Source: a virus
Virus record (IMG/VR): IMGVR_UViG_3300033149_002876
Coordinates: 4,118 to 68,117 of that record
Reading direction: 5' to 3' (one strand)
Length of the DNA stretch: 64,000 nt
Part shown: piece after piece, positions 23,712 through 50,531 of the stretch
How positions within the stretch are numbered: position 1 is the stretch's first letter
Layout: every line of letters begins with the position of its first letter
The notes under the pieces: model-generated
Seen by the model: only the letters and a program-made list of their open reading frames with translations
What the model was told of the DNA's origin: nothing
The model's database searches: none
Program-made: the position numbers and the translations under genes

Positions 23712-23952
23712 CTCAGGCTGCTTTCTTCAACCACGTGTTGAAATTAAAAGGGAGCTTCATATATTAGGTACGGATGCTCCTGCTGTGCGTTTAGGAAAAT
23801 CGGTAAAGGGAGAAATATGGGCTTGGAATTTTGATAAGAAAAAATGGGAGCTTAAAGGTGAACAAATGATTCCAGCAGGAACTTATTTGAAATTTAAAAA
23901 GCCTAAAGATAAAATTGAAGATGTTTTGAAGGAAGAGAATATAGATGGCTAG
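23635..23952 (+). CDS. Lipoprotein (o-spanin-like)
   Basis: MMFFLILIGINSG-C lipobox; true start probably about 23680. Confidence 0.55.
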   Translation: MRKCMIMQKRHLNILMMFFLILIGINSGCFLQPRVEIKRELHILGTDAPAVRLGKSVKGEIWAWNFDKKKWELKGEQMIPAGTYLKFKKPKDKIEDVLKEENIDG

Positions 23953-28649: not shown

Positions 28650-28650
28650 A

Positions 28651-31789: not shown

Positions 31790-32218
31790 ATGGCAAGAAT
31801 TGATGATGGCCACGCAACCTTAATTGAGTTTGCGGAAGACAGTGATGTTCAGATGTGGGAAAAGGAAGTAACACCTCCGGGAATTTCCGGTGGTGGTGAA
31901 AATGATACTTCCACGATGCATAATACAGTTTGGAGAACGAAAAGTCCAAAGGGGCTCAAGTCTCTTTCTGAATCTTCATTTACTGCAGCATATGATCCCG
32001 CAGTATATGATGAGATTGTATCTATGTGTAATGTGAATCAGTTGATCACTATTACATTCCCGGATTCCAGTACAATAGCATTTTGGGGATGGATTGATGA
32101 GTTTACTCCAGGAGCAAATGTAGAAGGTGAGCAGCCTACTGCTGATGTTACTATTATATGCTCAAATCAGAATGGTTCTCAGGTTGAGACTGCTCCTGTT
32201 TATTCTGCTGCGCCTTAA
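31790..32218 (+). CDS. Major tail tube protein
   Basis: VTPPG.SGG..DTSTM and ITFPDSST.AFWG. Confidence 0.8.
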   Translation: MARIDDGHATLIEFAEDSDVQMWEKEVTPPGISGGGENDTSTMHNTVWRTKSPKGLKSLSESSFTAAYDPAVYDEIVSMCNVNQLITITFPDSSTIAFWGWIDEFTPGANVEGEQPTADVTIICSNQNGSQVETAPVYSAAP

Positions 32219-36405: not shown

Positions 36406-38211
36406 ATGGCTTGGGATGCTGACAAAGGAAAGGTAGGACAAAATTGGATTTATTATGTTGAAATCCTACCCAGAACTTGTAGTCTAGTTTATGGTGATTC
36501 TCCCTGTATAGCTTCAGGTGGTCAATGCGCTTATTCCTGGGCTACTTGTGAAGATGTAGCTAATTTTGATTTGAATACAACCACTTATAAATTTTCTAGT
36601 AAGTTTGGAGGAAAGGTATTTGAAGGAACTCAAATACAGCCTTCATTAACATCTATATCATCTATTCCAACTGAAATCAATCCAAATAAATCTATAACAA
36701 TAAATGCTCGACTTGTATTAACTTTTGAAGATGTTGAAGATCCTCCACCATTTCATTCTGAAAAAGGGTCTGGAAAATTTTATCCATATAGGAAGGGAAC
36801 CTTTTGGCGTATATTTACTCGTATATATCGGGAGAGTTATAAGTATTGTACATTAAAATTATATGAAGGGCTTCCAAGTTATACTTCATTGAATGATTTT
36901 AGTTTGAGACGGGAACTTAAAATAAATAATATTGAGTTTTCTAAAGGTGGGAAAGTCAGAGTCACAGCAACTGATAAAACACGACTCACTAAAGCTCTTA
37001 AAATTCCTAATGCAATTAGCTCTTCTAATGTACTTACTCAAGAAGCCACTGCGGGTGATGCTGTTATTTTTGTTGCTAATACAAATGAATTTAAAATTCT
37101 AGATGGTGGTTATCCTTCTTACGGAAAAATAATAGACAGTGTTGCAGGTGATGAGTATTTTGAATTCACTAGTATTGGTATTACAGGAACCTATCTTGCA
37201 GGAGTAACTCGGGGATTGTTTGGAACATCCAATGTTACCCATGCAGTCGGAAAGAAAGTTATTCAAGTTGCGTCTTTTGCTAATGAATTTGATACAGGAA
37301 TTAGTTCAGATGTTGGTAAAAATCCTGTAGATATAGCAAAAGAAATTATTTTGGGTTGGGTTGGAATAGATTCTGGAGATGTAGATGATACTGAATTTGA
37401 TGATGAACGTGATCTTTGGTATCCTTCTTTAAAGTATCGGAGAATTATTGAAAGCCCGGTTCAAGCAGATAAATTGATATCACAACTCAATCAATTTATG
37501 ATGTCTAATATTTGGCAGAATGAAGATCAAAAATTAACATTCAGAGCATTGCAACCCACTGCTCCAGGGGAAACTCTTGTTGAATTTAAAACTGATGAAA
37601 ATATTATAAATGATACTCTTACAATCAATAATAAAGTAGAGACCCAAGTTAGTAGAGTTACTGTCCATTTTAGTCCAGATGATGTTTGGGGACTTAAAGA
37701 TCATTCATCAGCAGATGATTTTAGTGAGCATCTTATTTTAATAAATGCTGCAGCTGAAACTAGTAATGGACAAGGCGAACCCATTGAAGTTGAATTTTTT
37801 GCTGATTGGATTTATAATATATCGGAAGCCAAATCATTTGCTGATCGTTATATGCGCAGATATTCTCCTGTAGCTCCTATGGAAATTATGTACCAAGTAT
37901 CTCGTAGGGATTCAGATACACAAACAGGAGATATAGTTGATATAACTAGTGAATATTTTGTTAATGATGATGGTACAGAAGATACTTTAAATTTTCAAGT
38001 TCTTTCAAAATCAGAATCTCAAAAAGGTATTATTGAAATGAAAGCTCTTGAAACAAAATTTGATAAAAAATATGCTTTCATTACTCCTTCAGGATACCCG
38101 GATTGGACGGCAGCTACAGATGCTGAAAAAGAATATGGATACATTTGTGATGAAGATAGTGATGGAGAAGTTTTTATGAGTGATGGTTCTGAAGCCTCTT
38201 ATATTTGGTAA
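36406..38211 (+). CDS. Tail tip / baseplate hub protein
   Basis: N-terminal C..YG..PC...C...TC, RGLFGT...H and GDIV motifs. Confidence 0.7.
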   Translation: MAWDADKGKVGQNWIYYVEILPRTCSLVYGDSPCIASGGQCAYSWATCEDVANFDLNTTTYKFSSKFGGKVFEGTQIQPSLTSISSIPTEINPNKSITINARLVLTFEDVEDPPPFHSEKGSGKFYPYRKGTFWRIFTRIYRESYKYCTLKLYEGLPSYTSLNDFSLRRELKINNIEFSKGGKVRVTATDKTRLTKALKIPNAISSSNVLTQEATAGDAVIFVANTNEFKILDGGYPSYGKIIDSVAGDEYFEFTSIGITGTYLAGVTRGLFGTSNVTHAVGKKVIQVASFANEFDTGISSDVGKNPVDIAKEIILGWVGIDSGDVDDTEFDDERDLWYPSLKYRRIIESPVQADKLISQLNQFMMSNIWQNEDQKLTFRALQPTAPGETLVEFKTDENIINDTLTINNKVETQVSRVTVHFSPDDVWGLKDHSSADDFSEHLILINAAAETSNGQGEPIEVEFFADWIYNISEAKSFADRYMRRYSPVAPMEIMYQVSRRDSDTQTGDIVDITSEYFVNDDGTEDTLNFQVLSKSESQKGIIEMKALETKFDKKYAFITPSGYPDWTAATDAEKEYGYICDEDSDGEVFMSDGSEASYIW

Positions 38212-38220
38212 AGGAAAATA

Positions 38221-38832
38221 ATGGCAGTTCCAAGTAAAAATTTTACAGTAATTCCAGATGGTTCAATTGATGCTGATTCTCCAATCACCCAAGACCTTAT
38301 GACGGACTTTCGTGATAATGATATTAACCTTGAAGAATGGTTGGGAAAGAATTATACAGCAGCAGTAGATCATGATCATGATGGAGCAAACAGTGCTCCA
38401 GTAAATATTTCTGCAGTTCTAGCAGCTTATAATGCTCAGCATTCCGTTGATGCTAATTCATCATGGAGTATTTCTACAGGTGCTCTTGGTTTTACTCCAC
38501 AAGCTATGGTGGTTCATTGGGGAGTTGAGTTTGGATCTTTGAATGAAATTCATTATGGATGGGGCTTGGCTATGGGAATAGGCGCAGGGAATCAATCTGG
38601 ATTTGCTACCCGTTTTGATTCAAGTGGTCCAGCATTTGATGGTTCAGCTATTGATGCTAGTAATGTTATGGGTACAACTGCTAATACTGCAGGTGGATTA
38701 AATACTACATTTGCTGAAAAAGGTGAAGTAACAGCTTGGGCTGCAGGTGGTATTACCATAGCTACAACAACAGGTGTTTGGAGAGGTTCTGCCGGAACAC
38801 TTTATGTTAATATTCAAATTTGGGGAGCTTAA
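38221..38832 (+). CDS. Short tail fibre-like protein
   Basis: IDADSP.T.LM..RDN, HDHDG and GFTPQA; Gly/Thr-rich. Confidence 0.6.
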   Translation: MAVPSKNFTVIPDGSIDADSPITQDLMTDFRDNDINLEEWLGKNYTAAVDHDHDGANSAPVNISAVLAAYNAQHSVDANSSWSISTGALGFTPQAMVVHWGVEFGSLNEIHYGWGLAMGIGAGNQSGFATRFDSSGPAFDGSAIDASNVMGTTANTAGGLNTTFAEKGEVTAWAAGGITIATTTGVWRGSAGTLYVNIQIWGA

Positions 38833-38833
38833 A

Positions 38834-39197
38834 AATGATAATATATTATCAGAAAAGTACAAAACAAATTTTATCTATTGTTAATCATGATGCTAAAAAA
38901 TATTTAGATGATGAACAGTTGGAAGGGGAATTGGATTTAATATATCCGAATCTCAAAAATGATGTAGGTGTGAGTCGATTTAAAGAAGTAGAAAATCAAA
39001 AAGTAGAATGTGGTGGATTTTGGGATTCAGAAAAGAATATCCAAACTGCTCCACGGCCTGAAACTATTAAAACAGAACATCCTCATAAAGATCGTATTAG
39101 ATATCTTTTTGAAAATATGGAAACTGGCACAGCGACTTTAGCTGAAGTTCAGGAATATTTAGTAAAGGCTAATTTAACAAAAAGAATAACACAATAA
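38834..39197 (+). CDS. Tail fibre assembly-like protein
   Basis: MIIYYQKSTKQI start typical of XkdW-like chaperones; follows the fibre gene. Confidence 0.5.
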
Positions 39198-39217
39198 TAT
39201 CGGGAAGGAAAACAAAC

Positions 39218-39856
39218 GTGGCTGAAACATTTTATGATTCTGGTAAAAACAATAGACCTTTAGTTGTAGCTTATTATACTATTGATACTCCATATGAAGA
39301 TGAAGCAGAAACATTAAAATTATCTTTGGAAGCTGTTGGGTATAGTTATTTGATTACAGGTGTTCCCAATTTAGGAACCTGGCAAAAGAATACACAATAC
39401 AAAGCAAAGTTTATTCAGGAAATGCTCAATAGAAATATAGGTAAGCCTATATTATACCTTGATGTTGATGCTATAATGGTTCAAGCTCCAGTTCTGTTAG
39501 ATAATCTTAAAGCAGATGTTGCTGCTGTTCATTATGCAGGTAAATCTGAATTACTATCTGGAACAATTTATTTAGGTAATACTAAACAATGTAGAAGGAT
39601 AGTTCAAAAATGGATTCATCTCAACGAACAATATCCAGAAACATTACCTAATGGAAAACATGCTTGGGATCAAAGAACTTTAAAAATGGCTATAAGTAAA
39701 ATAAAAGGAGTAAATTTTGTAGAGCTTCCTCAGAGCTACACTTGGATAGTTGAACTTACTCAAAGATATACTGATTGTTCACCTATTATAATGCATACCA
39801 GAGGAGCTAAAAGATTTAAGAATAAAATCAACGGAAAGAAAGGATACGCAAAATGA
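39218..39856 (+). CDS. Nucleotide-diphospho-sugar transferase (GT-A)
   Basis: WQKNTQYKAKFI, ILYLDVDA (DxD), LLSGT, WDQ and IMH. Confidence 0.75.
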   Translation: MAETFYDSGKNNRPLVVAYYTIDTPYEDEAETLKLSLEAVGYSYLITGVPNLGTWQKNTQYKAKFIQEMLNRNIGKPILYLDVDAIMVQAPVLLDNLKADVAAVHYAGKSELLSGTIYLGNTKQCRRIVQKWIHLNEQYPETLPNGKHAWDQRTLKMAISKIKGVNFVELPQSYTWIVELTQRYTDCSPIIMHTRGAKRFKNKINGKKGYAK

Positions 39857-40512
39857 TTGCAAATCTTGAAGCTGATATTTGGGTTGTCTGGCCAACAGTT
39901 AATATTGAAAAAAGTCAGAGGATGATTGAAGCTTGGCATGATCGGGGATATAAAGTAGCTGTATTAGTAAATCCACCTAATACGGATGATATGTTAATTG
40001 AAGCTGAGATAGTTATTGTTCAAGATAAATGGATAAACTTTCCTGTTGCTGCTAATATCCTTTGCAAAATAGTTTCAGGAGATATTGTAGTTGTTGTAGG
40101 TGATGATATTAGTCCTGATCCTAATTCAACTGCTCAGGAAATAGGAAGAGATTTTTTGAAAAGATTTCCTGATACTTTCGGAGTTATACAACCTACTGGT
40201 GATGAATTTGGGTGTTATAATAAATGTGCTGTATCTCCCTGGCTTGGTCGAGATTTTATAGAAAAAGCTTATGAAGGAAAAGGACCATATTGGGAAGAGT
40301 ATTTTCATTATTTTTCAGATCAAGAATTACAAGAGTATGCTACTCAGTTAGGAATATTTGAACAACGGAAATATGTAAATCAATATCATGATCATTGGCA
40401 ACGACAAGAGGAACCCCAACGTCCTGGATATTTACTTCCGGCTAAAAAGAAATGGCATAAAGATAAACAAATTTTTCAGCAAAGACAAAAGGAAGGATTT
40501 CCATGTCAATAG
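39853..40512 (+). CDS. GT2-like glycosyltransferase
   Basis: VVWPT, VVVGDD, YFSDQE and HDHW. Confidence 0.7.
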   Translation: MIANLEADIWVVWPTVNIEKSQRMIEAWHDRGYKVAVLVNPPNTDDMLIEAEIVIVQDKWINFPVAANILCKIVSGDIVVVVGDDISPDPNSTAQEIGRDFLKRFPDTFGVIQPTGDEFGCYNKCAVSPWLGRDFIEKAYEGKGPYWEEYFHYFSDQELQEYATQLGIFEQRKYVNQYHDHWQRQEEPQRPGYLLPAKKKWHKDKQIFQQRQKEGFPCQ

Positions 40513-41438
40513 AAGGTTTGAATTTATCTTTTTCTAACAAGTGCCCTGCCAAATGTGTATTCTGTCCACCAGAACGGGGAACTAGTGATCCTCATTTTAT
40601 GGAACCAGATTTAGTAGAGAAACTTATTAAAGAAATATCTAGTGATGATTTTCCTTGGAAAGTTAAAACAATTCAGATCGGAGAAAATGGTGATGCTTTA
40701 ACTTCTCCTTATTTTATTCGGAATATTAGAATCATTCGTGATTATCTTCCAGGGGTTCGCATCAATCTCACAACTAATTTTTTCTGTATGAGCGAAGTTC
40801 AGGCTGTAATAATTTTAGAATTATTAAATGGTATTCAATTAAATATAGATGGTCATAACGCTGAAACATATGAAGCTCAAAAAAAGATTTCATATAATAC
40901 CGTAATGAAAAAGTTTCGTATGTTTATGAGATTTAGAAAAGGATTAAAACCTAATTTTCCAGTAGGGGTGAATGTGCTTCCTTTTTCAGTGTATTATAAT
41001 AAAGTTATGAAAAGATTTAATCAACCACCTTTGCAGGCTCCTGTTTATTTTCCTTCTATCCTTAAATCCTCTTATGTACAGGTTAAAAAAAGTTTAGAAG
41101 AAAAAAAATGGATCACTGAGGATGTTTTTATACGTGAATCACCTTCTTTCTTTTGGGCTGAAAGAAAAATGGATGTTGATTTTAATTTAAAAAAACACAG
41201 TTGTCCTCAATTACCTAGAATAGAAAAAGAAGCATTTATTAGTCCATCAGGTTGGTGGTATCCTTGTTGTTTTGATTCTAATCAAGATCAGGGGTATGGT
41301 AATGTTGTAATAAATTCTTTGGTTACACTTCATAATTCTGATGAGAGATTACGTTTTATTAAAATGTTAAAAAATAAAGAGTTTAAAAAAATTGGTTATC
41401 CTTGTAATCGAGTCCCTTTTTGTAAGGCTATAAAATGA
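40503..41438 (+). CDS. Radical SAM protein with SPASM/twitch domain
   Basis: CPAKCVFC, GENGD, LTTN and C-terminal C...ISPSG..YPCCFD...PC. Confidence 0.85.
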   Translation: MSIEGLNLSFSNKCPAKCVFCPPERGTSDPHFMEPDLVEKLIKEISSDDFPWKVKTIQIGENGDALTSPYFIRNIRIIRDYLPGVRINLTTNFFCMSEVQAVIILELLNGIQLNIDGHNAETYEAQKKISYNTVMKKFRMFMRFRKGLKPNFPVGVNVLPFSVYYNKVMKRFNQPPLQAPVYFPSILKSSYVQVKKSLEEKKWITEDVFIRESPSFFWAERKMDVDFNLKKHSCPQLPRIEKEAFISPSGWWYPCCFDSNQDQGYGNVVINSLVTLHNSDERLRFIKMLKNKEFKKIGYPCNRVPFCKAIK

Positions 41439-42112
41439 GTTTAGACACACCCTGGCAAATAGAACAAACTTGGGGAAGCCACCAAGCAGTCCTCAAAGCT
41501 GTATTAAAAGTTTTAAAACCCCAAACAGCAATAGAATGTGGTTCTGGATATTTTTCAACTCCATTATTATTAGAATATGTTCAAAATCTTATTACCATAG
41601 AACATAATCAAAGTTGGGCTAATAAAATTCAAAAAGATCATCCAGTCAATTCAAAACATACTTGGATTGTACAATCATTTCCTAATGTTAAAAATTGGAC
41701 ATCTATAGAAGAAGTAAAACCTGCTCATAGAAAGTTGCTTAAAATTCTTTATGAAAAACTTGCCAAAGATTTATCTCCCTGTGATTTTCTTTTTATGGAT
41801 ACTTTCCGGGCTGCTCGTGTTCCTGCTACAAAACAACTTTTATCAAAAGCAAATATGCTTCTATTACATGATGTGGAAGGTCCAAGTTACGACTATTATC
41901 AATTTAATGAAATACAAGAAATCTTAAAAGGATGGTTTAGGTATGAACATAGACCTGATAATATAAGGATAAATAAAAAACATATGGTACCTTGGACTGC
42001 TCTTTATACAAGAGAACGTATTGATTTAGAAAAAGTCAATGAAGAAGTTATTATAGAATCTAAACGGTTATGGAATGAACCTATTATTATGAAAGAAATA
42101 CATGGCGCCTGA
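41435..42112 (+). CDS. Class I SAM-dependent methyltransferase-like
   Basis: IECGSGYFST, TIEHN..W, FMD and LLHD. Confidence 0.7.
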   Translation: MSLDTPWQIEQTWGSHQAVLKAVLKVLKPQTAIECGSGYFSTPLLLEYVQNLITIEHNQSWANKIQKDHPVNSKHTWIVQSFPNVKNWTSIEEVKPAHRKLLKILYEKLAKDLSPCDFLFMDTFRAARVPATKQLLSKANMLLLHDVEGPSYDYYQFNEIQEILKGWFRYEHRPDNIRINKKHMVPWTALYTRERIDLEKVNEEVIIESKRLWNEPIIMKEIHGA

Positions 42113-42752
42113 TATTGATGGAGTTGAATACATTTTAAATTTCTTTTCTAAGAAAAAGAATGGTTATTTAATTGATGTGGGAGCTATGGATGGAGCCAAT
42201 GGTAGTATGTCTAAAGATTTAATTTCAGAAGGTTGGAATGGTTTATTGATAGAACCATTACCAGATTCTTTTAAAAAGTTAAAAAAGAACTATGAAAAAT
42301 ATCCTGGAGCCCAAACTATTCAGACACTTTGTTCTAATGAAAATGGTGAAGGTATATTATATCCATTCAGAGGAGTTTCGACAATGAGTCCTGAGTGGAG
42401 AGATGTATGTCAGAATCATTGGAAGCATGTTAATTATGGAAAGCCTATTAAACTGCCAAAAGTAACTCTAAAAACTCTTATGAGATTATATAAAGTTCCA
42501 TCTCATATAGATTTTTTACAAATTGATACTGAAGGACATGACTTATTTGTATTAAAAGGAATGGATTGGGATAGAAAACCTTCATTGGTTTGTGTTGAAG
42601 TTATTGATTTATGTCATATGGAAAGAAGATTAAGAAAAGGAATATGGAAACCGAGTATGGAATTGCAACAATATATGAGTGATGTTGGTTATTATCGAGA
42701 TAAACTTACCAAAGGTGGTAATGCTATTTTTATTAGGAAAGACAATGATTGA
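42102..42752 (+). CDS. FkbM-family methyltransferase
   Basis: IDVGAMDG, GLLIEP and IDFLQIDTEGHD. Confidence 0.88.
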   Translation: MAPDIDGVEYILNFFSKKKNGYLIDVGAMDGANGSMSKDLISEGWNGLLIEPLPDSFKKLKKNYEKYPGAQTIQTLCSNENGEGILYPFRGVSTMSPEWRDVCQNHWKHVNYGKPIKLPKVTLKTLMRLYKVPSHIDFLQIDTEGHDLFVLKGMDWDRKPSLVCVEVIDLCHMERRLRKGIWKPSMELQQYMSDVGYYRDKLTKGGNAIFIRKDND

Positions 42753-43494
42753 TTTAGTTGCTGGATATGCTCGTGGATATAATGCTGAACAGATAAGGCC
42801 ATTTTTAAAATCCTTGAGAGAAACAGGATATAAAGGAAAGATTCTTTTATTTGCAAATGGAGGAGCTGCAGAGGAAGCTAAAAATTGGAATGTGGATTTG
42901 AGGCCTTGTCCTAAACCTAAAATAAAAGTTCATTCAGATCGGTTTGTATGTCTGCAGGAAGCACTTGAAAATAGCGATTCTAAGGGCATTTTATTATCAG
43001 ATACCCGAGACGTTATATTTCAGCGAGATCCGGCTTTAGGATTGCCCTCAGACGGTTTGAACGCCTTTGAAGAGGATGATAGTAAGTCTATTGAGACCTG
43101 TCCTTATAATTCTTTATGGATAAAGCTGGGTTACGATAAAGAAATGTTTGAAAAATTAAAGACTTATCCAATATCTTGTGTTGGAACAGTTTGTGGAGAT
43201 GCTGCATCAATTAAATATTATTTAAAACGATTAAGAGAAGAAGTAGAAAGGATTCAACCTAAAACATTGAAACCTCAAGATCAAGGAGCCCATAATTATT
43301 TAATTCGTGGTCAAATAGAATCTCGTGTATGGCATAATGAAGAAGGGGAAATATATACAGTGGGATATATTCACCGGGGAAGTGTTAAAATTGAGAATGA
43401 TAATATAGTTAATCAATCAGGAAAAGTCCCAACAGTAATTCATCAATGGGACAGACATAAAAATTTGACAAAGTTTGTAGAAGGAAAATATTAA
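42745..43494 (+). CDS. GT-A fold glycosyltransferase-like protein
   Basis: LLSDTRDVIFQRDP, DQGAHN and IHQWDR. Confidence 0.7.
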   Translation: MIDLVAGYARGYNAEQIRPFLKSLRETGYKGKILLFANGGAAEEAKNWNVDLRPCPKPKIKVHSDRFVCLQEALENSDSKGILLSDTRDVIFQRDPALGLPSDGLNAFEEDDSKSIETCPYNSLWIKLGYDKEMFEKLKTYPISCVGTVCGDAASIKYYLKRLREEVERIQPKTLKPQDQGAHNYLIRGQIESRVWHNEEGEIYTVGYIHRGSVKIENDNIVNQSGKVPTVIHQWDRHKNLTKFVEGKY

Positions 43495-43956
43495 ATGGAT
43501 TATGCAATTACAGGATACCATGGAAAGAAAATCTTTAGTGGGCATTCAGCTAAACATGAAGGAAAAATTAAACGTATGGCTGACCTAATGAAATTACATG
43601 GATGGGTTTTTCCTCCAATTCCTGTAACTGATATGGGAGTTTATTTTCAAGCAATAGATGGTACTCATCGTATTGCTGCTTCCAATCAGGCAAGACTTTG
43701 TCCTGAAATAATAGTACTAGAAGCAAAACTTCATCCTGATCAACCCATTCCAAAGACTTGGAAAGAAATTTTAAATGCTCCATTAGTTTATGGTAAAACA
43801 ATTCGTGGTTACGCTCTTATTGAAAATCCAAAACAAAAACATATAGGAGTTGTATTAGATAAAGATCGAGAAATATTATGTGTTGAATATGTCGAGTATC
43901 TATTTGAGTTGCTTCTTAAGGTGACTCAGAAAATCAAAATCTTTAAGGAGAATTAA
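43495..43956 (+). CDS. ParB/sulfiredoxin-fold protein
   Basis: PPIPV...QAIDGTHRIAA. Confidence 0.65.
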   Translation: MDYAITGYHGKKIFSGHSAKHEGKIKRMADLMKLHGWVFPPIPVTDMGVYFQAIDGTHRIAASNQARLCPEIIVLEAKLHPDQPIPKTWKEILNAPLVYGKTIRGYALIENPKQKHIGVVLDKDREILCVEYVEYLFELLLKVTQKIKIFKEN

Positions 43957-43957
43957 G

Positions 43958-44548
43958 ATGAAGGACAAAAAGATTGAAAAGTATCTTGAAAAGGCAGATC
44001 GTTTTTCTGGTGATGGTGAATTGTATCAAAGTGTTACAGGAGTGGAAGGTAAAGGAACTCGTAATTTAAAAGACAGATGGAAGCTATATAAAATTTTATC
44101 CGCTGATTTAAAAGGCAAAAAGGTAGTTGATATCGGTTGTAATATTGGAGGCTTTTCTAAATTTTGTAAAGACAAGGTTAAAAGTTATTTAGGGATTGAG
44201 CCTTTCAAAGAATCAACTAAATTGGCCAAGCATCTTTTTCCATATTCCAATTGTACTTTCAGAACATCCACCTTTGATAAACTTAAAGGAAAGTTTGATG
44301 TGATTCTTGCATTGGCTGTAAGACGATACACTGGACTTTCAATGGAAGCTTTTGCTGAAGCTTGTTCTAATCGTTTAAATGAAAATGGATTGATCTTCTT
44401 TGAATCTCATGGAAGAGAAAAGCTGACTCCTAAAAAGAAAAAAGCATTTGAAAAATATTTTCGTATTGAAAGAGTGATTGATGTTCCTTCTACTTCACTT
44501 CCTGATTGTGAAAATGTTCGTTTTTTTATAAGAGGCATAAAAAAATGA
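43958..44548 (+). CDS. Class I SAM-dependent methyltransferase
   Basis: LKGKKVVDIGCNIGGFS, FDVIL and IFFE. Confidence 0.82.
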   Translation: MKDKKIEKYLEKADRFSGDGELYQSVTGVEGKGTRNLKDRWKLYKILSADLKGKKVVDIGCNIGGFSKFCKDKVKSYLGIEPFKESTKLAKHLFPYSNCTFRTSTFDKLKGKFDVILALAVRRYTGLSMEAFAEACSNRLNENGLIFFESHGREKLTPKKKKAFEKYFRIERVIDVPSTSLPDCENVRFFIRGIKK

Positions 44549-45330
44549 CCTACATTACCAACCAAAGATTAGCTAAACTTGCTGGAGTAGGTTTTAGATC
44601 AGAAGAAATTAAACTGGGGACTATTGTTTATTCTAGGACTCATACAATAGTCCCCCAGTTTAAGAAATTGGCTGAATTTCCTGAGTGTGTTTTAATCACC
44701 AGTTTCTCTGATGATAATTGTACGGATGAAATGGCTGATAAACTTCCTTTCAATGTTAAAAAATGGTTCAGTAATAATGTTTCAACTGATAATCCTAGAG
44801 TTATAGGAGTGCCTATTGGTCTAAGAACATCAAATGAAATTGAAATGAAAATAAAAGAAGCTGAAGAAAGAGGTAGATTGCCTGACCAAAATTTAGTGTA
44901 TATGAATTTTTGGAGAAAGATTGCGAATAGAAGAGGCAGAGGTAATCCACGGAATGGATTATATAAAATGTTTGAAGGTAAAAAATGGGTCACTACTGAA
45001 GGGGGATACGAACATGTTTCTATAGACCATTTTTATAAACAAGTTATAAGCCATCCATATATTTTAAGTCCTCCGGGAGCTGGTCCAGATTGCCACCGTC
45101 ATTGGGAAGCAATATTATTGGGCTCAATTCCTATTGTACAAAGAAGTCCCGTGACTAAAATTCTTGATGGTCTTCCTTGTCTTCAGGTAAATAACTGGAG
45201 TGAAGTAAATGAAGAAATGTTATTGGGATCATTACCTAGATTAAAAAAATTATTTAAAAGTCCACGGATGGAAATTTGTAAATTTGAATATTGGAAGAAA
45301 AAAATATTAGGGGTAGTCAATGTTTCATAA
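44545..45330 (+). CDS. Exostosin/GT47-like glycosyltransferase
   Basis: PIGL, LVYMNF and ILSPPGAGPDCHRHWEAILLGSIPIV. Confidence 0.75.
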   Translation: MTYITNQRLAKLAGVGFRSEEIKLGTIVYSRTHTIVPQFKKLAEFPECVLITSFSDDNCTDEMADKLPFNVKKWFSNNVSTDNPRVIGVPIGLRTSNEIEMKIKEAEERGRLPDQNLVYMNFWRKIANRRGRGNPRNGLYKMFEGKKWVTTEGGYEHVSIDHFYKQVISHPYILSPPGAGPDCHRHWEAILLGSIPIVQRSPVTKILDGLPCLQVNNWSEVNEEMLLGSLPRLKKLFKSPRMEICKFEYWKKKILGVVNVS

Positions 45331-45931
45331 TATGGTAATGTGTGGAATACCTAGAAGTGGCTCAACTTTAATATGGCAGATTCTACAGTCTATTTTTCCC
45401 AGACAGAAAATTATAAAAACACATCCTTATGATTGGGACGCAGATGGATCTTGGGTCTTTGCAAGTATTCGTGATCCTAGAGATATTGCTGCATCTTTAT
45501 TGAGGGTAAGATTAAGTAGAGAAGGAAAAAAAAGGAATTTAGAAGGAAAAGATATAAGACAAGAATTAAAAAGGATGGAACTTAATTTTGAAAAATTAAG
45601 AAAATTGATAATTGGTCCACATGTAATTCTTAGATATGAAGAATTCTATCAAAATTATGATATTATATATGATTCTATTTGTAAAACATTTAATATAACT
45701 ATTCCAACTAAAATACGATTACAATTAAATAGTAAATTTAGTTTAAAAAATAATAAAGGAAGAGCTGATAACCTGAAAAATTTTTATGATGTTGATGAAT
45801 GGCACGTGCATGGAGATCATATAGGTCATATTCACCCGGGATATTGGAAAGAGTTCATACCAAGTTGGGGTATGCATTATATAAATAAAGTTTGTTTACC
45901 TATTTGTAAAGAATGGAATTATGATGAATAA
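45320..45931 (+). CDS. Sulfotransferase paralog 1
   Basis: 5'-PSB GIPRSGSTL, KTH, 3'-PB RDPRDIAAS and LRYEEF. Confidence 0.85.
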   Translation: MFHNMVMCGIPRSGSTLIWQILQSIFPRQKIIKTHPYDWDADGSWVFASIRDPRDIAASLLRVRLSREGKKRNLEGKDIRQELKRMELNFEKLRKLIIGPHVILRYEEFYQNYDIIYDSICKTFNITIPTKIRLQLNSKFSLKNNKGRADNLKNFYDVDEWHVHGDHIGHIHPGYWKEFIPSWGMHYINKVCLPICKEWNYDE

Positions 45932-46547
45932 AGCAAAAGTTGTTTTTAGTGGAATACCAAGATCAGGTTCAACTTTATTATGGCAAGTTTTTACTCATAT
46001 TGTTCCTCATACTATTGGATCTGAAAGAACAACTCCCAGAGCTTGGAAGCCAGATGGTATTTCTTGGGCTTTATGTGCATATAGAAATCCTTATGATGTG
46101 GCAGCAAGCAAATATACTCTTCGTAAAGGAAGAGCAAAAGTAGAAGAAAAACCTGAAATTGGAGTGAGGGCTGTTTCTGGTCATGTGGTTAAATTATTTG
46201 ATGCTTTAAAAAATTTAAAAGCAACTTATGATAAATGTCTTGTTTTCAAATATGAAGATTTCATATATGATTTTACACCTTTTTATGAAGCTATTGAAAA
46301 GTTATTTGAAATGGAAGTCCCACAATCCCAAAGAAAAGAAATATATGATTTATGTTGTCTTGAAGCAAATAAGAAAAAATGCGCTAGTCCAGATATAGAT
46401 GATATGTATAAAGAATTTTGGTTGCATAGAAAACACATCAATTCTCCTGAACCAGGTTCATGGATAAATGTTATTCCAGAATCATGTCATACTTTATTGA
46501 GAAATAAGTGTGGGAGAATTTGTAAAGAATGGGGATATGATGAATAA
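45921..46547 (+). CDS. Sulfotransferase paralog 2
   Basis: GIPRSGSTL, RNPYDVAAS and FKYEDF. Confidence 0.85.
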   Translation: MMNKAKVVFSGIPRSGSTLLWQVFTHIVPHTIGSERTTPRAWKPDGISWALCAYRNPYDVAASKYTLRKGRAKVEEKPEIGVRAVSGHVVKLFDALKNLKATYDKCLVFKYEDFIYDFTPFYEAIEKLFEMEVPQSQRKEIYDLCCLEANKKKCASPDIDDMYKEFWLHRKHINSPEPGSWINVIPESCHTLLRNKCGRICKEWGYDE

Positions 46548-47166
46548 TATAATAGCTTGTGGAGTTCCAAGAACCGGTTCAACTTTAATTTGGCAGATTC
46601 TTATTAGAGCTTTACCTAATCGAAAAGTTATCAAAGCTCATCCTGCTTCCTGGGAACCTATTGATAATTGTTTTATTGTAGGTTCAATTAGACATCCTTA
46701 TGATAATGCTGCTAGTTGTTTTCGTTCACGAGTGATAGGTGATGATGGAGATGGAGTGGATGTTAAAGGAACTAAAAAAGGATTGATTGCTGAATTGAGA
46801 ATGCTTAAAAATAATTATGATCAATTGAGAATATTATTAGATAAATATCCTAGTTTTAATTTACGCTATGAGAATTTTTTTAATAATTTTGATTATGTAT
46901 TTGATATAATTGAAAGTGATTTAAAGATAAAAGTTCCTTATGAGTTAAGAAAAGAAATTAAAATTGATTGTTCTTTTGGAATGAATATGAAAAGATCATT
47001 TGCTAATATCAAAGGTCAGGAATATCAGAAAACAAAAATAAATCCTGGGCATGTTGGAGTTGGAATTCCGGGCTCTTGGAAAGCTATTATTCCACGATGG
47101 GGATATGATGTAATGAGAAAATGGTGTGACCCTTTATGTAAGGATTGGGGCTATGAGGGTAAATAA
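46537..47166 (+). CDS. Sulfotransferase paralog 3
   Basis: GVPRTGSTL, KAH, RHPYDNAAS and LRYENF. Confidence 0.85.
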   Translation: MMNNIIACGVPRTGSTLIWQILIRALPNRKVIKAHPASWEPIDNCFIVGSIRHPYDNAASCFRSRVIGDDGDGVDVKGTKKGLIAELRMLKNNYDQLRILLDKYPSFNLRYENFFNNFDYVFDIIESDLKIKVPYELRKEIKIDCSFGMNMKRSFANIKGQEYQKTKINPGHVGVGIPGSWKAIIPRWGYDVMRKWCDPLCKDWGYEGK

Positions 47167-47776
47167 GATACATAAATTCATTTTTATTTCTACTCCAAAA
47201 GCATGTACTCATACTATATATAATATTTTGGATGAGCATTATTCTTTTAGATTAAGAAAATTTGGATTTCATTGTAATAACATTCCTGAAAGATATAAAA
47301 ATTATTTCAGATGGACAGTTGTGAGGAATCCTTTTAGCAGGGCTGTTAGTATTTGGTGGAGTGCCTGCCGTTTAGCTCATAAGGATCAATATAAATTCCG
47401 AGTCAGAAGTGGAGGACAATACGACTTTACTAAATTTATAGTTTGGTTATCTAAGCAAAATCAGAATGAAGCTTTAGTAATGAATCAATCTAATTGGCTT
47501 CGTTCAGTAGAGCCTTACAATCTTATTCATATGGAAAATTTAGAAGAAGAATTAAAACAACTTCCATTTTGGAAAGAAGGAATAAAGATACCCCAACTCA
47601 ATACCACTACTGAAAAAATAGAAACACAATCAAAAGCTGAAGAAAAAGTTATTAAAAGACCTTCATTGAAAGAATTGTATAAAAGTAAGAGAGCAATTGA
47701 AGCTGTGTTGAAATGGGCTGAAGAAGATTTTGATAAATTTGAATATGAAAGAGATATCAAGTGGCTAAAAAAATAA
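47153..47776 (+). CDS. Sulfotransferase family 2 (carbohydrate sulfotransferase-like)
   Basis: FIFISTPKACTHT, VVRNPFSRAVS and MENLEEE...DFDKFEY. Confidence 0.82.
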   Translation: MRVNKIHKFIFISTPKACTHTIYNILDEHYSFRLRKFGFHCNNIPERYKNYFRWTVVRNPFSRAVSIWWSACRLAHKDQYKFRVRSGGQYDFTKFIVWLSKQNQNEALVMNQSNWLRSVEPYNLIHMENLEEELKQLPFWKEGIKIPQLNTTTEKIETQSKAEEKVIKRPSLKELYKSKRAIEAVLKWAEEDFDKFEYERDIKWLKK

Positions 47777-48414
47777 TTAGTATATCGCTTTATGGAGACT
47801 CACCTGTATATTTTAATGGGGTGATTGCCAATGCTAAACTTGTTCCTAAGATATTTCCAGGCTGGACAATGAGAGTATATTGTGAAATGTCCAATATTGA
47901 TCTAACACCATTAGTAGAATTGGATTGTGAAATTATAAGAAAGCCTGAATCAAGACTTCACTCAGGAATGTTCTGGAGATTTTTAGCTGCATGGGATAAT
48001 GAAGCTGAACGTGCAATTTTTCGTGATGCTGATTCCCGGTTAAATGTAAAAGAAGCTGAAGCAGTTAAAGCCTGGGAAGAATCTGGATTGGATGCCCATT
48101 GCATGAAAGATCATCTTCATCATACAATCAAACCAATGTCCGGGGGAATGTGGGGAATCAAATGTAGAATATTGCCTAGACAACTTTTGAGAGAAGTATT
48201 AAAGAAAGCAAGACAATCTCAAAAAAGGGTAAAGGATATGCATTGGTTAAGAGATAATGTTCATCCATTGATAAAAGATTCTTTGCTTCGTCATTCTTCA
48301 TTTCCTTCCAGATGGCCCAGTGTTCCTTTTCCACCTCATCCTGAATATGAAGGCTTTGTTGGACAACAGTATGATGAATTAGATAATCCAATTTATCCAG
48401 GAGAAAATAAATGA
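47761..48414 (+). CDS. Putative GT-A-type glycosyltransferase
   Basis: IISISLYG, GMFWRFL, IFRDADSR (DxD) and GGMWG. Confidence 0.6.
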   Translation: MAKKIISISLYGDSPVYFNGVIANAKLVPKIFPGWTMRVYCEMSNIDLTPLVELDCEIIRKPESRLHSGMFWRFLAAWDNEAERAIFRDADSRLNVKEAEAVKAWEESGLDAHCMKDHLHHTIKPMSGGMWGIKCRILPRQLLREVLKKARQSQKRVKDMHWLRDNVHPLIKDSLLRHSSFPSRWPSVPFPPHPEYEGFVGQQYDELDNPIYPGENK

Positions 48415-49340
48415 AAATTTTAGTAACAGGTAGTAGTGGATTTATAGCCGGGCATTTGATTCAGGCTTTACTTGAACGTGGAAATGAAGTTACAGCTATT
48501 GATAAAAGAGTACCTTCAGATTGGATAGTCCATCAATTTTTAAAATATGAAGATCAATTAGATATTTGTCAAGGATACTTAACAGAAATTGTATGTAAAG
48601 AAGGAATGAGAAATATTCAAGTGGTTTATCATTTAGCTTCAGAAACTAATTTAGAAAAGTCAATGGGCAATCCTGTTCAAGCTCTTGAAGATGATTTAAC
48701 TTCCACTGTACAATTACTTGAGGCTTGTAAAGAAGTTTCTCCAGATGCCCGATTTATTTTTACTTCCAGTGCAGCTGTATATGGTCATACTTCAAAACAT
48801 AAAGTATCAGAAGAGGAAGCGGAAACAGCTGAAATGATTTCTACATATGGGATAAATAAAAGAGCTTGTGAATTTTATATTGACTTATATAAGAGAATTC
48901 ATAAATTATCAATAGGGTGTGTTCGATTTTTTAATGTATATGGACCTGGACAATTAAATCTTCAAGCTGTGATCCCATCTTTTATTTTAAGTGCTTTGAA
49001 AGACAAAGAGCTATTGATTAAAGGGGATGGAAGTCATACCCGGGATTTTGTTCATGTGAGTGATGTCGTTGAAGCTCTTTTATTAATGGGCAAGAGTAAT
49101 TGCCAGGGGATACTTAATGTAGGTACAGGGGAATCCCATTCAATAAAAGATTTAGTTGTTTATTTAGAAATTGAATTGAAGAAAAAATTACAAGTTGAAA
49201 ATATTTCTATGACAGAATGGGATATTAAACATAGTTGTGCTGATGTTTCTTCAATTGAGGAATTGATTGGCTGGAAAGCAAAGAAGAAATTGGATGAAGG
49301 ATTAAAAGATACAATAGAATATTATAAACAGATGATATAA
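48411..49340 (+). CDS. NAD-dependent nucleotide-sugar epimerase/dehydratase (GalE-like)
   Basis: GSSGFIAG, TSSAAVYG, YGINK, RFFNVYGP and RDFVHVSD. Confidence 0.92.
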   Translation: MKILVTGSSGFIAGHLIQALLERGNEVTAIDKRVPSDWIVHQFLKYEDQLDICQGYLTEIVCKEGMRNIQVVYHLASETNLEKSMGNPVQALEDDLTSTVQLLEACKEVSPDARFIFTSSAAVYGHTSKHKVSEEEAETAEMISTYGINKRACEFYIDLYKRIHKLSIGCVRFFNVYGPGQLNLQAVIPSFILSALKDKELLIKGDGSHTRDFVHVSDVVEALLLMGKSNCQGILNVGTGESHSIKDLVVYLEIELKKKLQVENISMTEWDIKHSCADVSSIEELIGWKAKKKLDEGLKDTIEYYKQMI

Positions 49341-49970: not shown

Positions 49971-50531
49971 TTATTCCAATTCAATAATTAAACCAATTTT
50001 CATTTCATCAATATGTGTTACCTGGATAAACTGAAAACCAAATTCCTCAGTTAGCATTACCAGCATCTCCGGGACTCTACTCAGATATCCTTTATCTTTA
50101 GATACATCACCAAAAGGTTGATCCAGAGCCATTGTGCGCCTGGGTCTTTTCTTTGATAGGAGCAAAGAGGATAGCCGGAGAGCGAATGCTACAATAACAA
50201 TGACTCCTCCCCCTACATTCTTTCTTTCTTTGCCATCCCGAATGAATAAGAGGTCTGCTTCAAGCTTTCCCCGTTTACGAATAAAGTTAATTTTGAATTC
50301 ATAAGGATCAGGGAAAATAGCTTGGAGGCATTTGTTAACAATATTAGCTATTTGTTTATGAACCTGTTGCTGGATTTCCTCTGCAGCTTCCTGGGCAATT
50401 TCTTGAGCCCGGAGAATATCAGCCAATTGCTCTTTGGCTTGTTTCAATTTCTCTTGTTCTGTTTTTTGGAGCTTGAGTGCATCAGTATATTTGTCTTTTA
50501 GATCCTCAATTTGTTTTTTAAGTTTGGTCAT
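49971..50531 (-). CDS. sbcC: Rad50/SbcC C-terminal half (coiled coil + ABC signature/Walker B)
   Basis: VGGGV...FALRL, MALDQPF and QFIQVTH; complements 54966-55994. Confidence 0.8.
   Translation of the reverse strand: MTKLKKQIEDLKDKYTDALKLQKTEQEKLKQAKEQLADILRAQEIAQEAAEEIQQQVHKQIANIVNKCLQAIFPDPYEFKINFIRKRGKLEADLLFIRDGKERKNVGGGVIVIVAFALRLSSLLLSKKRPRRTMALDQPFGDVSKDKGYLSRVPEMLVMLTEEFGFQFIQVTHIDEMKIGLIIELE

Follow-up and report, generated by a model that had tools for sequence, protein, structure and literature searches.

The 15 genes at the 3' terminus of the late (virion) operon of an uncultured, long-tailed phage form a cassette whose predicted products support a glycan pathway of soluble proteins with several transferases and with methylation and sulfation steps. 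We propose that this cassette tailors a glycan in the cytoplasm late in infection and acts most likely on virion proteins, a reading to which we assign a probability of roughly 0.45. The phage genome is complete at 68,117 bp and carries a tape-measure gene; the window analyzed here is a 64,000-nt stretch of it. The cassette fills positions 39218–49340 of the window with ORFs of a single strand (+), follows the tail-fibre block and begins 20 nt past the last tail-block ORF (38820–39197, same strand). Once start codons had been reset from orthologues (orf6 to 42745, orf12 to 46537 and orf13 to 47153), every junction within the cassette measured between -16 and +1 nt, in line with the tightly packed, mostly overlapping genes that the initial annotation had described behind the tail fibre. 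Promoter and terminator scans returned chance-level counts (83 versus 76.9 and 11 versus 8.3, respectively), so it is from the layout only that we infer late co-transcription of the cassette. Also as first annotated, the products lack transmembrane segments: a KD scan (at least 1.6 over 19 residues) flagged nothing in the cassette ORFs except one stretch in orf2. That stretch is internal and hydrophobic in the manner of a beta-strand. A search of the cassette for a membrane protein, flippase, polymerase or priming transferase found none. Family membership was verified for 11 of the 15 ORFs (orf1, orf3, orf5 and orf8–orf15).

The best-defined sugar transferase is the core gene orf9 (44545–45330), a GT114-family inverting glycosyltransferase (GT-B) homologous to chlorovirus A075L. 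It matches PDB entries 8q8i/8avq/8asa with E-values of 1.1e-20 (single sequence) and 4.6e-36 (profile), and its Asp56, Arg136 and Arg185, invariant in 7/7 orthologues, align to the A075L catalytic residues Asp73, Arg158 and Arg208. The core protein orf14 (47761–48414) is a GT-A-fold glycosyltransferase whose virus-rich family is without a Pfam assignment. Its model (pLDDT 96.1) finds GT-A enzymes as PDB fold matches (TMq 0.36–0.56) and phage and giant-virus proteins in BFVD (TMq 0.72–0.81). An R-D-x-D-S motif is invariant; none of the 120 proteins listed among its 600 relatives has a Pfam domain, and a relative is present on 279 viral contigs. Core orf1 (39218–39856) is a nucleotide-diphospho-sugar transferase-like protein (GT-A type) with a marginal Pfam match (PF03407 Nucleotid_trans, 22.8 bits versus a cut-off of 22). 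Its orthologues, at 57–71% identity, occur in L001, L002, L004, L005 and L006, and homologues, alone or within other cassettes, occupy the same slot in eight further relatives.

Two more core proteins are putative glycosyltransferases, and for neither did Pfam, PHROG, NCBIfam or PDB-sequence searches give a match. The first, orf2 (39853–40512), has a GDDxxPD motif and belongs to a family of 618 representatives at E <= 1e-3; 4 of the 10 multidomain members scanned are fusions to GT4/GT1, GT2, NDP-sugar SDR or class I methyltransferase domains. Its language-model look-alikes are mainly phage clusters, including one that is 24% GT2. The second, orf6 (42745–43494), whose start is backed by orthologues and by a 249-aa database copy, has an invariant D-x-R-D motif. 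Its family numbers 489 proteins, with a Pfam domain in 0 of the 120 matches listed; comparison with the orf14 GT-A profile (hhalign) gave a probability of 4%, and GT_PLOD and GT8 clusters came up as language-model leads. Of about five glycosyltransferase-like ORFs proposed initially, orf9, orf14 and, as a borderline case, orf1 are thus upheld, and orf2 and orf6 stay putative on DxD-like motifs, fusions and language-model leads. A GalE-like epimerase had also been named. This accessory protein, orf15 (48411–49340), is an extended-SDR NDP-sugar epimerase/dehydratase (PF01370, 161 bits); no NCBIfam equivalog exceeds its cut-off, the best being GalE (140.9 bits) and dTDP-glucose dehydratase (134 bits).

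Downstream of orf9 lie four PAPS-type sulfotransferases, as originally annotated. Paralogues 1 to 3 are orf10 (45320–45931), orf11 (45921–46547, found in the window alone) and orf12 (46537–47166); orf10 and orf12 share 36% identity, and orf11 is 30–31% identical to both. Their PRSGST and RxPxDxxxS motifs are invariant. Pfam matches are weak for orf10 (Sulfotransfer_3) and below the cut-offs for orf11 (Sulfotransfer_3, 24.8 bits; Sulfotransfer_1, 20.2 bits). A Foldseek search of PDB with an AlphaFold2 model of orf12 (pLDDT 86.9), the check that had been suggested, returned exclusively PAPS-dependent sulfotransferases or retinol dehydratase among the matches listed at ranks 1–48 (TMq 0.54–0.69). 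Near-length relatives of orf12 number just 15 among 5.8 billion clusters. The fourth enzyme, orf13 (47153–47776), belongs to the Sulfotransfer_2 (carbohydrate-type) family (PF03567, 33.5 bits versus a cut-off of 22), with the motifs PKACTHT and RNPFSRAVS invariant in 4/4 orthologues. The initial remark that PAPS-synthesis genes are missing from the window extends to the whole 68,117-bp genome, where we found no APS kinase over cut-off, no PAPS_reduct/CysD-type domain and no ATP sulfurylase.

Three SAM methyltransferases had been counted, and two are confirmed, both accessory: the FkbM-family orf5 (42102–42752; PF05050, 53.7 bits; TIGR01444, 50.6 bits versus a cut-off of 37.7) and the class I orf8 (43958–44548; PF13489, 41.4 bits, with PF08242, PF13847 and PF08241 likewise over their cut-offs). 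The third, core orf4 (41435–42112), is a putative class I enzyme with an invariant ECGxG..STP motif and weak profile matches to TRMT61A and PIMT methyltransferases (E 0.21 and 2.6). Its one Pfam match, to Med18, was judged spurious. The accessory orf3 (40503–41438) bears out the annotation as a radical SAM enzyme with a SPASM/twitch-type C-terminal domain: PF04055 scores 41.3 bits, the CxxxCxxC motif lies at residues 14–21, and SPASM PF13186 reaches 20.8 bits, just below its cut-off of 21.5. No NCBIfam model exceeded its cut-off for orf3; weak matches include PapB and anaerobic sulfatase maturase. The small accessory protein orf7 (43495–43956) has a ParB/Srx-like DGTHR motif, no Pfam match at E <= 0.01 and a profile match to the ParB N-terminal domain 4umk at E 0.054. 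Both orf7 and orf8 occur in 3/7 cassettes, as does orf3, which is limited to the window, L002 and L003.

The cassette was present at 4 of 48 related loci, and nine others have one or two cassette homologues; it is accessory and dispensable within the lineage. Six of the nine viral contigs found via the sulfotransferase carry this gene set in unchanged order at 36–77% amino-acid identity, and this conserved order makes the cassette more than a chance assembly. Its place after the tail fibre, p203 and p125 is kept in L001 and L006. It is likewise kept in G003, a terminally repeated genome of 43.9 kb in which the cassette wraps across the ends, behind the tail genes. G003 has a GC content of 61%, versus about 33% in the window phage. 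The two share TerL (62% identity), portal (58%), capsid (72%), tail tube (72%), tape measure (39%), a Maf-like gene (59%) and six cassette genes (38–57%), and have no replication genes in common (blastp, E 1e-5). Loci with homologues of core cassette genes range from 41 to 64% GC. The cassette is therefore co-inherited with the virion module across 33–64% GC and, in the case of G003, without the replication module. This spread argues that a phage-borne acceptor is a simpler explanation than a host acceptor. Elsewhere among the loci examined, L156 carries a different cassette by Pfam, with NeuB and a CMP-sugar synthetase (a nonulosonic-acid pathway) in the same slot, and L146 and L179 carry similar runs of short ORFs. 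Since related phages hold different cassettes in this slot, they would be expected to show different glycan coats.

Under our proposal, orf1, orf2, orf6, orf9 and orf14 would draw on nucleotide sugars of the host to build a short oligosaccharide in its cytoplasm late in infection, and orf15 may convert one such sugar. The methyltransferases would O-methylate the chain, orf3 would edit a sugar, and the four sulfotransferases would sulfate several positions with host-made PAPS as donor. The acceptor would most likely be a protein of the phage particle, be it capsid, tail tube or fibre. Among 27 virion-region proteins we saw no Ser/Thr-rich tail, repeat or obvious acceptor motif (S+T fraction 0.04–0.20). 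The sulfated, methylated virion glycan first envisaged is backed in its enzymology, and its virion target gains indirect support from co-inheritance with the virion module, the placement in G003 and the membership of orf9 in the A075L family, as well as from the occurrence of the orf14 fold family in giant viruses.

Chloroviruses provide a close enzymatic parallel. A075L is a soluble xylosyltransferase that, according to the available part of the source, builds the capsid N-glycan of PBCV-1 (PMC11571054), and O-methylation enzymes accompany the transferases there, as an excerpt of a second paper describes (PMC9614988). PBCV-1 (A075L/GT114, A064R, A061L, A111/114R) thus resembles the present case in its virus-encoded, soluble cytoplasmic transferases and methyltransferases, and in orf9 the catalytic Asp of A075L and its two phosphate-binding Arg residues are retained. 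It differs in that ours is a tailed phage with a bacterial host; the available portions of these papers describe no chlorovirus equivalent of the four sulfotransferases or the radical SAM enzyme, and a PDB-sequence profile search detected no A064R homologue. Fibril-glycosylation clusters of Megavirinae (Moumouvirus australiensis, Cotonvirus, Tupanvirus), for which accessible passages suggest a sulfated virion glycan, are likewise clade-specific and swappable and pair sugar-nucleotide and sulfate-metabolism enzymes with methyltransferases and numerous transferases; giant viruses also have members of the orf14 fold family. These passages describe giant amoeba viruses with SAT/APS-kinase-type sulfate genes, whereas our phage has sulfotransferases without PAPS-synthesis genes. 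Mycobacteriophage virion-glycosylation systems reportedly comprise two or three genes and lack sulfation. The likeness to our proposal is that phage-encoded transferases act on virion proteins, decorating capsid and tail-tube subunits by O-glycosylation (Freeman et al. 2023, as cited in the consulted part of PMC12619734). The initial annotation knew of no sulfated virion-glycan pathway in a tailed phage; glycosyltransferase islands flanking tail-fibre genes of phages, and phage sulfotransferases without an assigned role, are already in print, and what is new here are sulfation and this gene composition.

The main rival, possible but on balance unlikely, is that the cassette remodels a host surface glycan, its soluble enzymes acting at the inner membrane face on undecaprenyl-linked O-antigen, capsule or LPS-core intermediates; the changed surface of the infected cell might, for example, block superinfection or keep progeny from sticking to debris. 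This alternative, already raised at the outset, is kept alive by the sulfotransferases. Five bacterial loci hold distant homologues of orf10–orf12 (24–35% identity), and all three whose neighbours were scanned are of LPS/O-antigen type (lipid A acyltransferase with GT4, GT11 and GT10; GT2 with Wzy_C; ABC transporter with GT2), so cell-surface glycans are a familiar setting for this enzyme family. The cultured cyanophage S-SRM01, too, carries an orf14 homologue within a large fucose/glycosyltransferase/FkbM cluster of a type usually annotated as LPS. Pelagimyophages and cyanomyophages have a host recognition cluster, a hypervariable island of tail fibres and glycosyltransferases (Zaragoza-Solas et al. 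2020; PMC7029224). As far as the consulted text of that paper extends, it describes a variable glycan-enzyme island joined to tail-fibre genes in aquatic uncultured phages, with radical SAM cassettes among the variable parts, takes the adjoining glycosyltransferases as modifiers of the host O-chain and makes no mention of sulfotransferases; our phage differs in that its genome is 68 kb long and includes a tape-measure gene, and in that the cassette closes the late operon. Against host remodelling, the phage genome lacks an integrase, the cassette has no membrane or export component, and its place as the last unit of the late operon gives the surface little time to turn over. That phages of 33–64% GC carry this gene set at 38–77% identity would require widely differing hosts to present a single acceptor structure, and four to five transferases without a priming transferase must rely on a host intermediate.

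It is improbable that the product is a sulfated oligosaccharide or other small molecule, free or lipid-linked and bound to neither virion, host envelope polymer nor DNA, such as a signal or host-defence inhibitor, or that part of the cassette is a peptide-modifying, RiPP-like unit around the SPASM enzyme. SPASM radical SAM enzymes are frequently peptide maturases, a role that the weak NCBIfam matches of orf3 also evoke, and no acceptor protein stood out among the 27 virion-region proteins; yet the radical SAM gene is accessory, the conserved core consists of transferases, and linkage to the virion module would be left unexplained. Hypermodification of phage DNA to evade restriction (for example, through a glycosylated, sulfated 7-deazaguanine or hydroxymethyl base), another early suggestion, is very improbable: although the window genome encodes QueC alongside a QueE-like radical SAM enzyme, the ParB/Srx-like motif of orf7 adjoins a methyltransferase, and phage glycosyltransferases that place multi-sugar glycans on DNA are on record (Pyle et al. 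2024, as cited in part of another source), QueC is found in 0/5 cassette-bearing relatives (four of them at least 90% complete, with the window genome as positive control), G003 has the cassette and no replication or DNA-metabolism gene in common with the window, the Que genes are part of the replication arm (minus strand) and not, like the cassette, of the late arm, orf7 and orf8 are accessory, and orf8 matches small-molecule-type rather than DNA methyltransferase families.

Outside the cassette, two ORFs past the capsid gene, lies a GT42/Maf-like (MptE-like, sialyltransferase-like) gene (22401–23042, plus strand) that is a candidate partner of the cassette. Its product weakly resembles Cst-II and the MptE-like (DUF115) family: profile matches to Cst-II sialyltransferases have E-values of 8e-4 to 3e-3, and PF01973 matches 5/6 orthologues, all below cut-off (21 bits versus 34.6). 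The gene occurs in 9/9 cassette-bearing genomes versus 2/12 relatives without a window-like cassette, a comparison in which the genomes are not independent and several negatives are 50–87% complete. Maf proteins act in the cytoplasm, where they glycosylate a structural protein that self-assembles, according to the available portions of two papers (PMC3426422, PMC4065374). The Maf/GT42 flagellin islands differ from the window, which lacks nonulosonic-acid synthesis genes; these were seen solely in L156, whose pathway could be used by a transferase of the GT42/Maf-like type. Giant phages of Caulobacter have homologues of the 22401–23042 gene that carry the annotation alpha-2,3-sialyltransferase.

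Fifteen plus-strand ORFs (orf1-orf15) span 39218-49340, directly behind the tail-fibre genes. Three starts were reset from orthologues (orf6 to 42745, orf12 to 46537 and orf13 to 47153), and with orthologue-supported starts all 14 junctions within this cassette lie between -16 and +1 nt; 20 nt separate the last tail-block ORF from the start of orf1. The layout given in the initial annotation, 15 tightly packed genes on one strand after the tail fibre, is thus confirmed. GC content is 32.4% in the cassette versus 36.7% in the structural block, and GC3 is 0.19 versus 0.22, values close enough that the cassette does not have the look of a recent import. Promoter and terminator scans remained at chance level. 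TM-like segments were absent from the 15 proteins, save for one internal hydrophobic strand in orf2, and none is a multi-TM protein; apart from that strand, the earlier remark that no TM segment is obvious was borne out. AGGA/GGAG-like Shine-Dalgarno sequences lie 5' of many cassette genes (39190-49340), yet the closest terminase relatives of the phage are from phages of Bacteroidota, a phylum mostly without Shine-Dalgarno sites.

The window covers bases 4118-68117 of a record of 68,117 bp, which is bounded by direct terminal repeats and has a completeness rating of 100%; PHROGs matches mark the virus as a tailed phage. They place the large terminase at 13898-15382, the portal at 15379-16887, a protease/scaffold-like protein at 18707-20221, a capsid-type virion protein at 20806-21873, the tape measure at 33044-35578 and a tail fibre at 36406-38211. 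We call the phage long-tailed because a tape-measure gene is present, and the label rests on that gene. Its nearest terminase relatives among GenBank phages, from Riemerella, Croceibacter and Cellulophaga phages (Bacteroidota), share just 39% identity. Replication genes (SNF2 helicase, primase, sigma-like factor, SbcCD-like, 5'-3' exonuclease, RecA-like, clamp-loader-like and family A polymerase) lie on the minus strand in both flanks. The left replication arm also holds, on the minus strand, the 7-deazaguanine-pathway gene QueC (203 bits) at 1696-2403 and, at 711-1358, a radical SAM gene resembling QueE; the DNA of the phage probably contains a 7-deazaguanine base. An ORF straddling the first bases of the window starts with a motif like that of GTP cyclohydrolase I.

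Four cassette genes, orf10 to orf13, encode sulfotransferases of two families. The products of orf10, orf11 and orf12 are mutually paralogous (30-36% identity), and in all 16 aligned sequences of this type P-R-[ST]-G-S-T and R-x-P-x-D-x-x-x-S, the 5'-phosphosulfate and 3'-phosphate motifs for the sulfate donor PAPS, are invariant. All three score under the Pfam cut-off for Sulfotransfer_3 (17.5-24.8 bits versus 27); precomputed Pfam assignments mark PF13469 on 7 of 14 relatives, with the window's own copy excluded. The modelled member of the group, orf12, reached a pLDDT of 86.9, and all PDB fold matches listed for it are PAP(S)-bound sulfotransferases or retinol dehydratase (TMq 0.54-0.69). 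The possibility that these ORFs fold as unrelated P-loop kinases, which would have undone the original proposal, is thereby removed for the orf10-12 group. The type is rare, with 15 near-length relatives among 5.8 billion clusters. The product of orf13 exceeds the Sulfotransfer_2 gathering cut-off (33.5 bits versus 22), and all four sequences compared retain its PKACTHT and RNPFSRAVS motifs unchanged.

The observation that the window carries no PAPS-synthesis gene extends to the whole genome, where no ATP sulfurylase, no PAPS-reductase/CysD-type domain and no APS kinase above cut-off was found. Sulfation would therefore rely on host PAPS. A single APS-kinase-like match (17.6 bits, below cut-off) fell on the P-loop of a clamp-loader-like ORF and was rejected as a PAPS gene.

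Among the predicted glycosyltransferases, orf9 has the clearest family assignment of the cassette, CAZy GT114 (inverting, GT-B). The founder of that family is A075L, the beta-xylosyltransferase of the capsid N-glycan of chlorovirus PBCV-1. In a search of crystal-structure sequences, residues 49-255 of orf9 aligned with residues 68-278 of the A075L chain (E 1.1e-20), and a profile built from seven orthologues improved this to E 4.6e-36. In the alignment Asp56, Arg136 and Arg185 of orf9, invariant in 7/7 orthologues, correspond to Asp73, Arg158 and Arg208 of A075L; excerpts of the published work assign Asp73 as catalytic base and the two arginines to phosphate binding (PMC11571054). A075L uses UDP-xylose as donor and a fucose of the capsid N-glycan as acceptor; orf9 is likened to it by sequence.

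The orf14 model (pLDDT 96.1) has a GT-A fold. Its best PDB fold matches are GT-A transferases at moderate similarity (TMq 0.36-0.56), including the Skp1 alpha-galactosyltransferase and the fucosyltransferase WrtF, and much closer matches were found in BFVD (TMq 0.72-0.81, 22-32% identity), namely an uncultured phage protein and proteins of the giant viruses Mimivirus LCMiAC01 and Aureococcus virus. An acidic motif, R88-D89-x-D91-S92, is invariant in 59/59 sequences, and neither orf14 nor any of the 120 relatives listed (of 600) carries a Pfam domain. The product of orf1 passes the Nucleotid_trans cut-off by just 0.8 bit. No match to orf2 or orf6 was detected in Pfam, PHROGs, NCBIfam or PDB sequences; they belong to large Pfam-less families of 618 representatives and 489 proteins, respectively. 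Their language-model look-alike clusters are dominated by phage proteins, with a minority labelled GT2, GT8 or GT_PLOD. Of 10 multidomain relatives scanned for orf2, four have its domain fused to GT4/GT1, GT2, an NDP-sugar SDR or a methyltransferase, and six gave no Pfam match. Profile comparison of orf6 with orf14 and orf1 gave hhalign probabilities of 4% and 0.2%, respectively. The product of orf15 is an extended-SDR nucleotide-sugar enzyme whose sequence does not specify the reaction.

Family matches identify orf5 as FkbM and orf8 as a class I methyltransferase, and orf4 has a methyltransferase-like glycine motif with weak, chance-level PDB matches. A PF04055 match of 41.3 bits, CxxxCxxC at residues 14-21 and a SPASM score of 20.8 bits, 0.7 below cut-off, identify orf3 as a radical SAM enzyme whose C-terminal tail is of SPASM type; no specific NCBIfam subfamily exceeded its cut-off. 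Over residues 22-85 the orf7 profile matched ParB (4umk) with an E-value of 0.054, and a DGTHR motif is present, with no Pfam match. PHROGs returned nothing for nine cassette proteins and for the upstream ORF of 125 aa (0/10), and PDB sequence-profile searches with orf1, orf2, orf6, orf13 and orf14 were blank or at chance level. Altogether, 11 of the 15 family assignments were verified (orf1, orf3, orf5 and orf8-orf15) and none was refuted, and those of orf2, orf4, orf6 and orf7 stay putative.

Against GenBank phages, megablast with the whole cassette gave no match, and tblastn found nothing for orf12, orf3 or orf2 and one weak match for orf6. Single-protein locus searches gave no match. Among viral contigs, nine encode an orf10-12-type sulfotransferase, and in six of these (L001-L006) the cassette genes, at 36-77% identity, keep their order; the search for co-occurrence and position, suggested at the outset, thus recovered a conserved gene order. 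A core recurs that comprises orf1, orf2, orf4, orf6, orf9, one or two sulfotransferases and orf14; orf3, orf5, orf7, orf8, orf11, orf13 and orf15 are variable. The set in the window, with four sulfotransferases, is the most complete. The orf14 family is far wider (279 viral contigs), and its partners in 79 loci examined are GT114 (26), SDR (26), FkbM (16), orf2 (11), orf1 (10), orf6 (9), orf4 (9) and any sulfotransferase (8). A homologue annotated as hypothetical also occurs in the cultured freshwater Synechococcus phage S-SRM01 (L095, record 190672-209313), within a cluster of about 15 genes that includes fucosyltransferases, GT2, GT25, FkbM and GDP-fucose synthesis genes.

We then surveyed the cassette's position through the gene that faces it (49971-50531), which has relatives in 144 viral contigs; 80 loci were taken, 48 of them with at least 8 kb beyond the gene. 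At a phmmer threshold of E <= 1e-4, four of the 48 had five or more cassette genes, nine had one or two homologues (orf1, orf5 or orf15) and 35 had none. The cassette is an accessory island. In two loci (L112 and L127) the slot runs straight into fibre and tape-measure genes, and in three (L146, L156 and L179) it holds long runs of ORFs of 200-300 aa. One of these, L156:10707-19525 (minus strand), has the same genome layout and a different glycan cassette: NeuB, a CMP-type cytidylyltransferase, an SDR, FkbM, two class I methyltransferases, a rhamnosyltransferase-family protein, a GT2 and a glyoxalase-fold protein, a predicted pathway of nonulosonic-acid type. Since the relatives carry differing cassettes, the end of the late operon in this lineage serves as a slot for interchangeable glycan cassettes.

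The linkage of the cassette to the virion module is seen in a complete related phage genome, G003 (L186-L188; 43.9 kb, with terminal repeats), whose GC content is 60.8% versus 33% for the window phage. The two share terminase (62% identity), portal (58%), capsid (72%), tail tube (31790-32218; 72%), tape measure (39%) and connector-like proteins, together with the gene at 22401-23042 (59%) and six cassette genes (38-57%), whereas their replication arms have nothing in common (blastp, E 1e-5). Conserved virion proteins common to both also include two of 150 and 145 aa beside the capsid, the fibre and p203. By sequence comparison this is a striking case of modules exchanged between phages of very different GC content. 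The G003 cassette lies at the start of the record, behind a plus-strand ORF open at its 5' end, and the last ORF of the record is open at its 3' end; the cassette therefore follows the tail genes across the terminal repeat. Loci with homologues of core cassette genes range from 41 to 64% GC.

The shared gene at 22401-23042 (plus strand), two ORFs after the capsid gene, is GT42/Maf-like (MptE-like, sialyltransferase-like). Its profile matched Campylobacter Cst-II sialyltransferases (E 8e-4 to 3e-3) over the GGxSL-type N-terminus and a second motif, five of six orthologues matched MptE-like/DUF115, every score being below cut-off, and alpha-2,3-sialyltransferase is the annotation of its homologues in giant phages of Caulobacter. 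It is present in 9/9 genomes with a cassette in the slot versus two of 12 relatives that lack a cassette like the window's (seven at least 90% complete), in a set of mutually related genomes with coarsely checked absences. We regard as a lead that the cassette may have a partner in this gene, one that glycosylates protein. According to excerpts of two studies (PMC3426422, PMC4065374), flagellin is glycosylated by Maf-family enzymes while still in the cytoplasm, prior to export.

What the cassette decorates was considered in the light of these data. We favour a virion protein as the acceptor, with a probability of roughly 0.45, because the enzymes are soluble and come without export machinery, because the cassette closes the virion operon, because it is co-inherited with a conserved capsid/tail module across hosts of very different GC, and because the founder of one core enzyme's family builds a capsid glycan. 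A scan of 27 virion-region proteins for collagen-like or Ser/Thr-rich acceptor features gave none worth claiming. The virion-glycan interpretation in the initial annotation is partly supported: gene content, motifs, folds, layout, conservation and virion-module linkage are shown, and the product and the acceptor we still infer.

Remodelling of a host surface glycan is the main rival, and we consider it less likely than a virion acceptor. GtrABC-like seroconversion modules combine a membrane flippase with transferases in temperate phages that carry an integrase; here, no multi-TM protein is found among the 15 and Phage_integrase is absent from the complete genome. Distant bacterial homologues of the sulfotransferases (five found) do lie in an LPS/O-antigen context in all three loci scanned. 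To our knowledge, no one has shown which targets the fibre-side glycan islands of marine myophages decorate. Such glycosyltransferase-rich variable islands, joined to tail-fibre genes in pelagimyophages and cyanomyophages, have been read as modifiers of the host O-chain, in a paper whose available sections leave sulfotransferases unmentioned (PMC7029224), and this published reading of comparable islands also speaks for the host surface. That the cassette instead makes a free metabolite or has a peptide-modifying role seems improbable to us. Hypermodification of phage DNA, the 7-deazaguanine alternative, is weakened to the point of being very improbable, with QueC absent from 5/5 cassette-bearing relatives (four at least 90% complete) in the same search that finds the window's own QueC, and with G003 keeping the cassette and no replication-arm gene of the window.

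In the mechanism that we favour, the cassette genes would be translated late, along with the tail genes, and the core transferases would assemble a short oligosaccharide from host nucleotide sugars, one of which might be converted by orf15. The methyltransferases and the radical SAM enzyme would tailor the chain, and the four sulfotransferases, from their two families, would sulfate different positions from host PAPS. More broadly, and tentatively, we propose that a widespread uncultured tailed-phage lineage, with hosts of ~33-64% GC, coats its particles with an oligosaccharide that bears sulfate and O-methyl groups and is assembled in the cytoplasm of the host by an exchangeable cassette of the late operon. 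If so, virion 'glyco-serotypes' would be interchangeable, because sister phages hold the nonulosonic-acid cassette in the same slot, and would represent the first sulfated glycoprotein virions of bacterial viruses, built in part by enzymes of families that giant viruses also have.

Virus-encoded glycosylation of particles is established in chloroviruses, Megavirinae and some mycobacteriophages. In systems of the chlorovirus and mycobacteriophage type the glycan is, by definition, attached covalently to proteins of the capsid or tail; the present cassette is known from its genes. The available text of one study describes Megavirinae glycosylation clusters that include sulfate-metabolism genes and suggests sulfated fibril sugars (PMC9614988), and phage sulfotransferases have already been noticed, with a function that "remains unclear" (PMC10580990). 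By title and abstract, we found no description of a phage-encoded sulfated virion glycan among the papers listed in searches of open-access literature. The initial claim of novelty is tempered in that fibre-side glycan islands and phage sulfotransferases were already in print. Apparently new to the literature are the compact siphovirus-type setting, the presence of four sulfotransferases, the link through GT114 to chlorovirus capsid glycosylation, the two large Pfam-less core families, the slot for interchangeable cassettes and the joint inheritance of cassette and virion module.

The cassette is of real interest for phage glycobiology. It is a compact 10 kb, consists of soluble enzymes only, is rich in sulfotransferases and is co-inherited with a conserved capsid/tail module across very different hosts; its compactness, its solubility and this co-inheritance make the question of the target (virion, host surface or DNA) directly testable by expression. 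If the virion is the target, sulfated coats would bear on adsorption, on stickiness to marine polysaccharides or mucus and on escape from recognition, and the cassette would also supply new soluble glycan sulfotransferases and two Pfam-less transferase families.

Elsewhere in the genome, a small minus-strand ORF (8417-8956) contains a Sigma70_r2 domain (25.8 bits versus a cut-off of 24) and is a candidate phage sigma factor for the timing of late transcription. Two plus-strand ORFs, 23042-23572 and 23635-23952, look spanin- or lysis-like: one has an N-terminal hydrophobic segment and a second such segment, the other a lipoprotein-like signal ending in Cys. Further along the structural module, four successive proteins (27340-30584, plus strand), which have no homologue in G003, carry concanavalin A-like/LamG domains (Laminin_G_3, 33-98 bits). 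No tRNA was found within the window. The last of the four LamG proteins contains two such domains.
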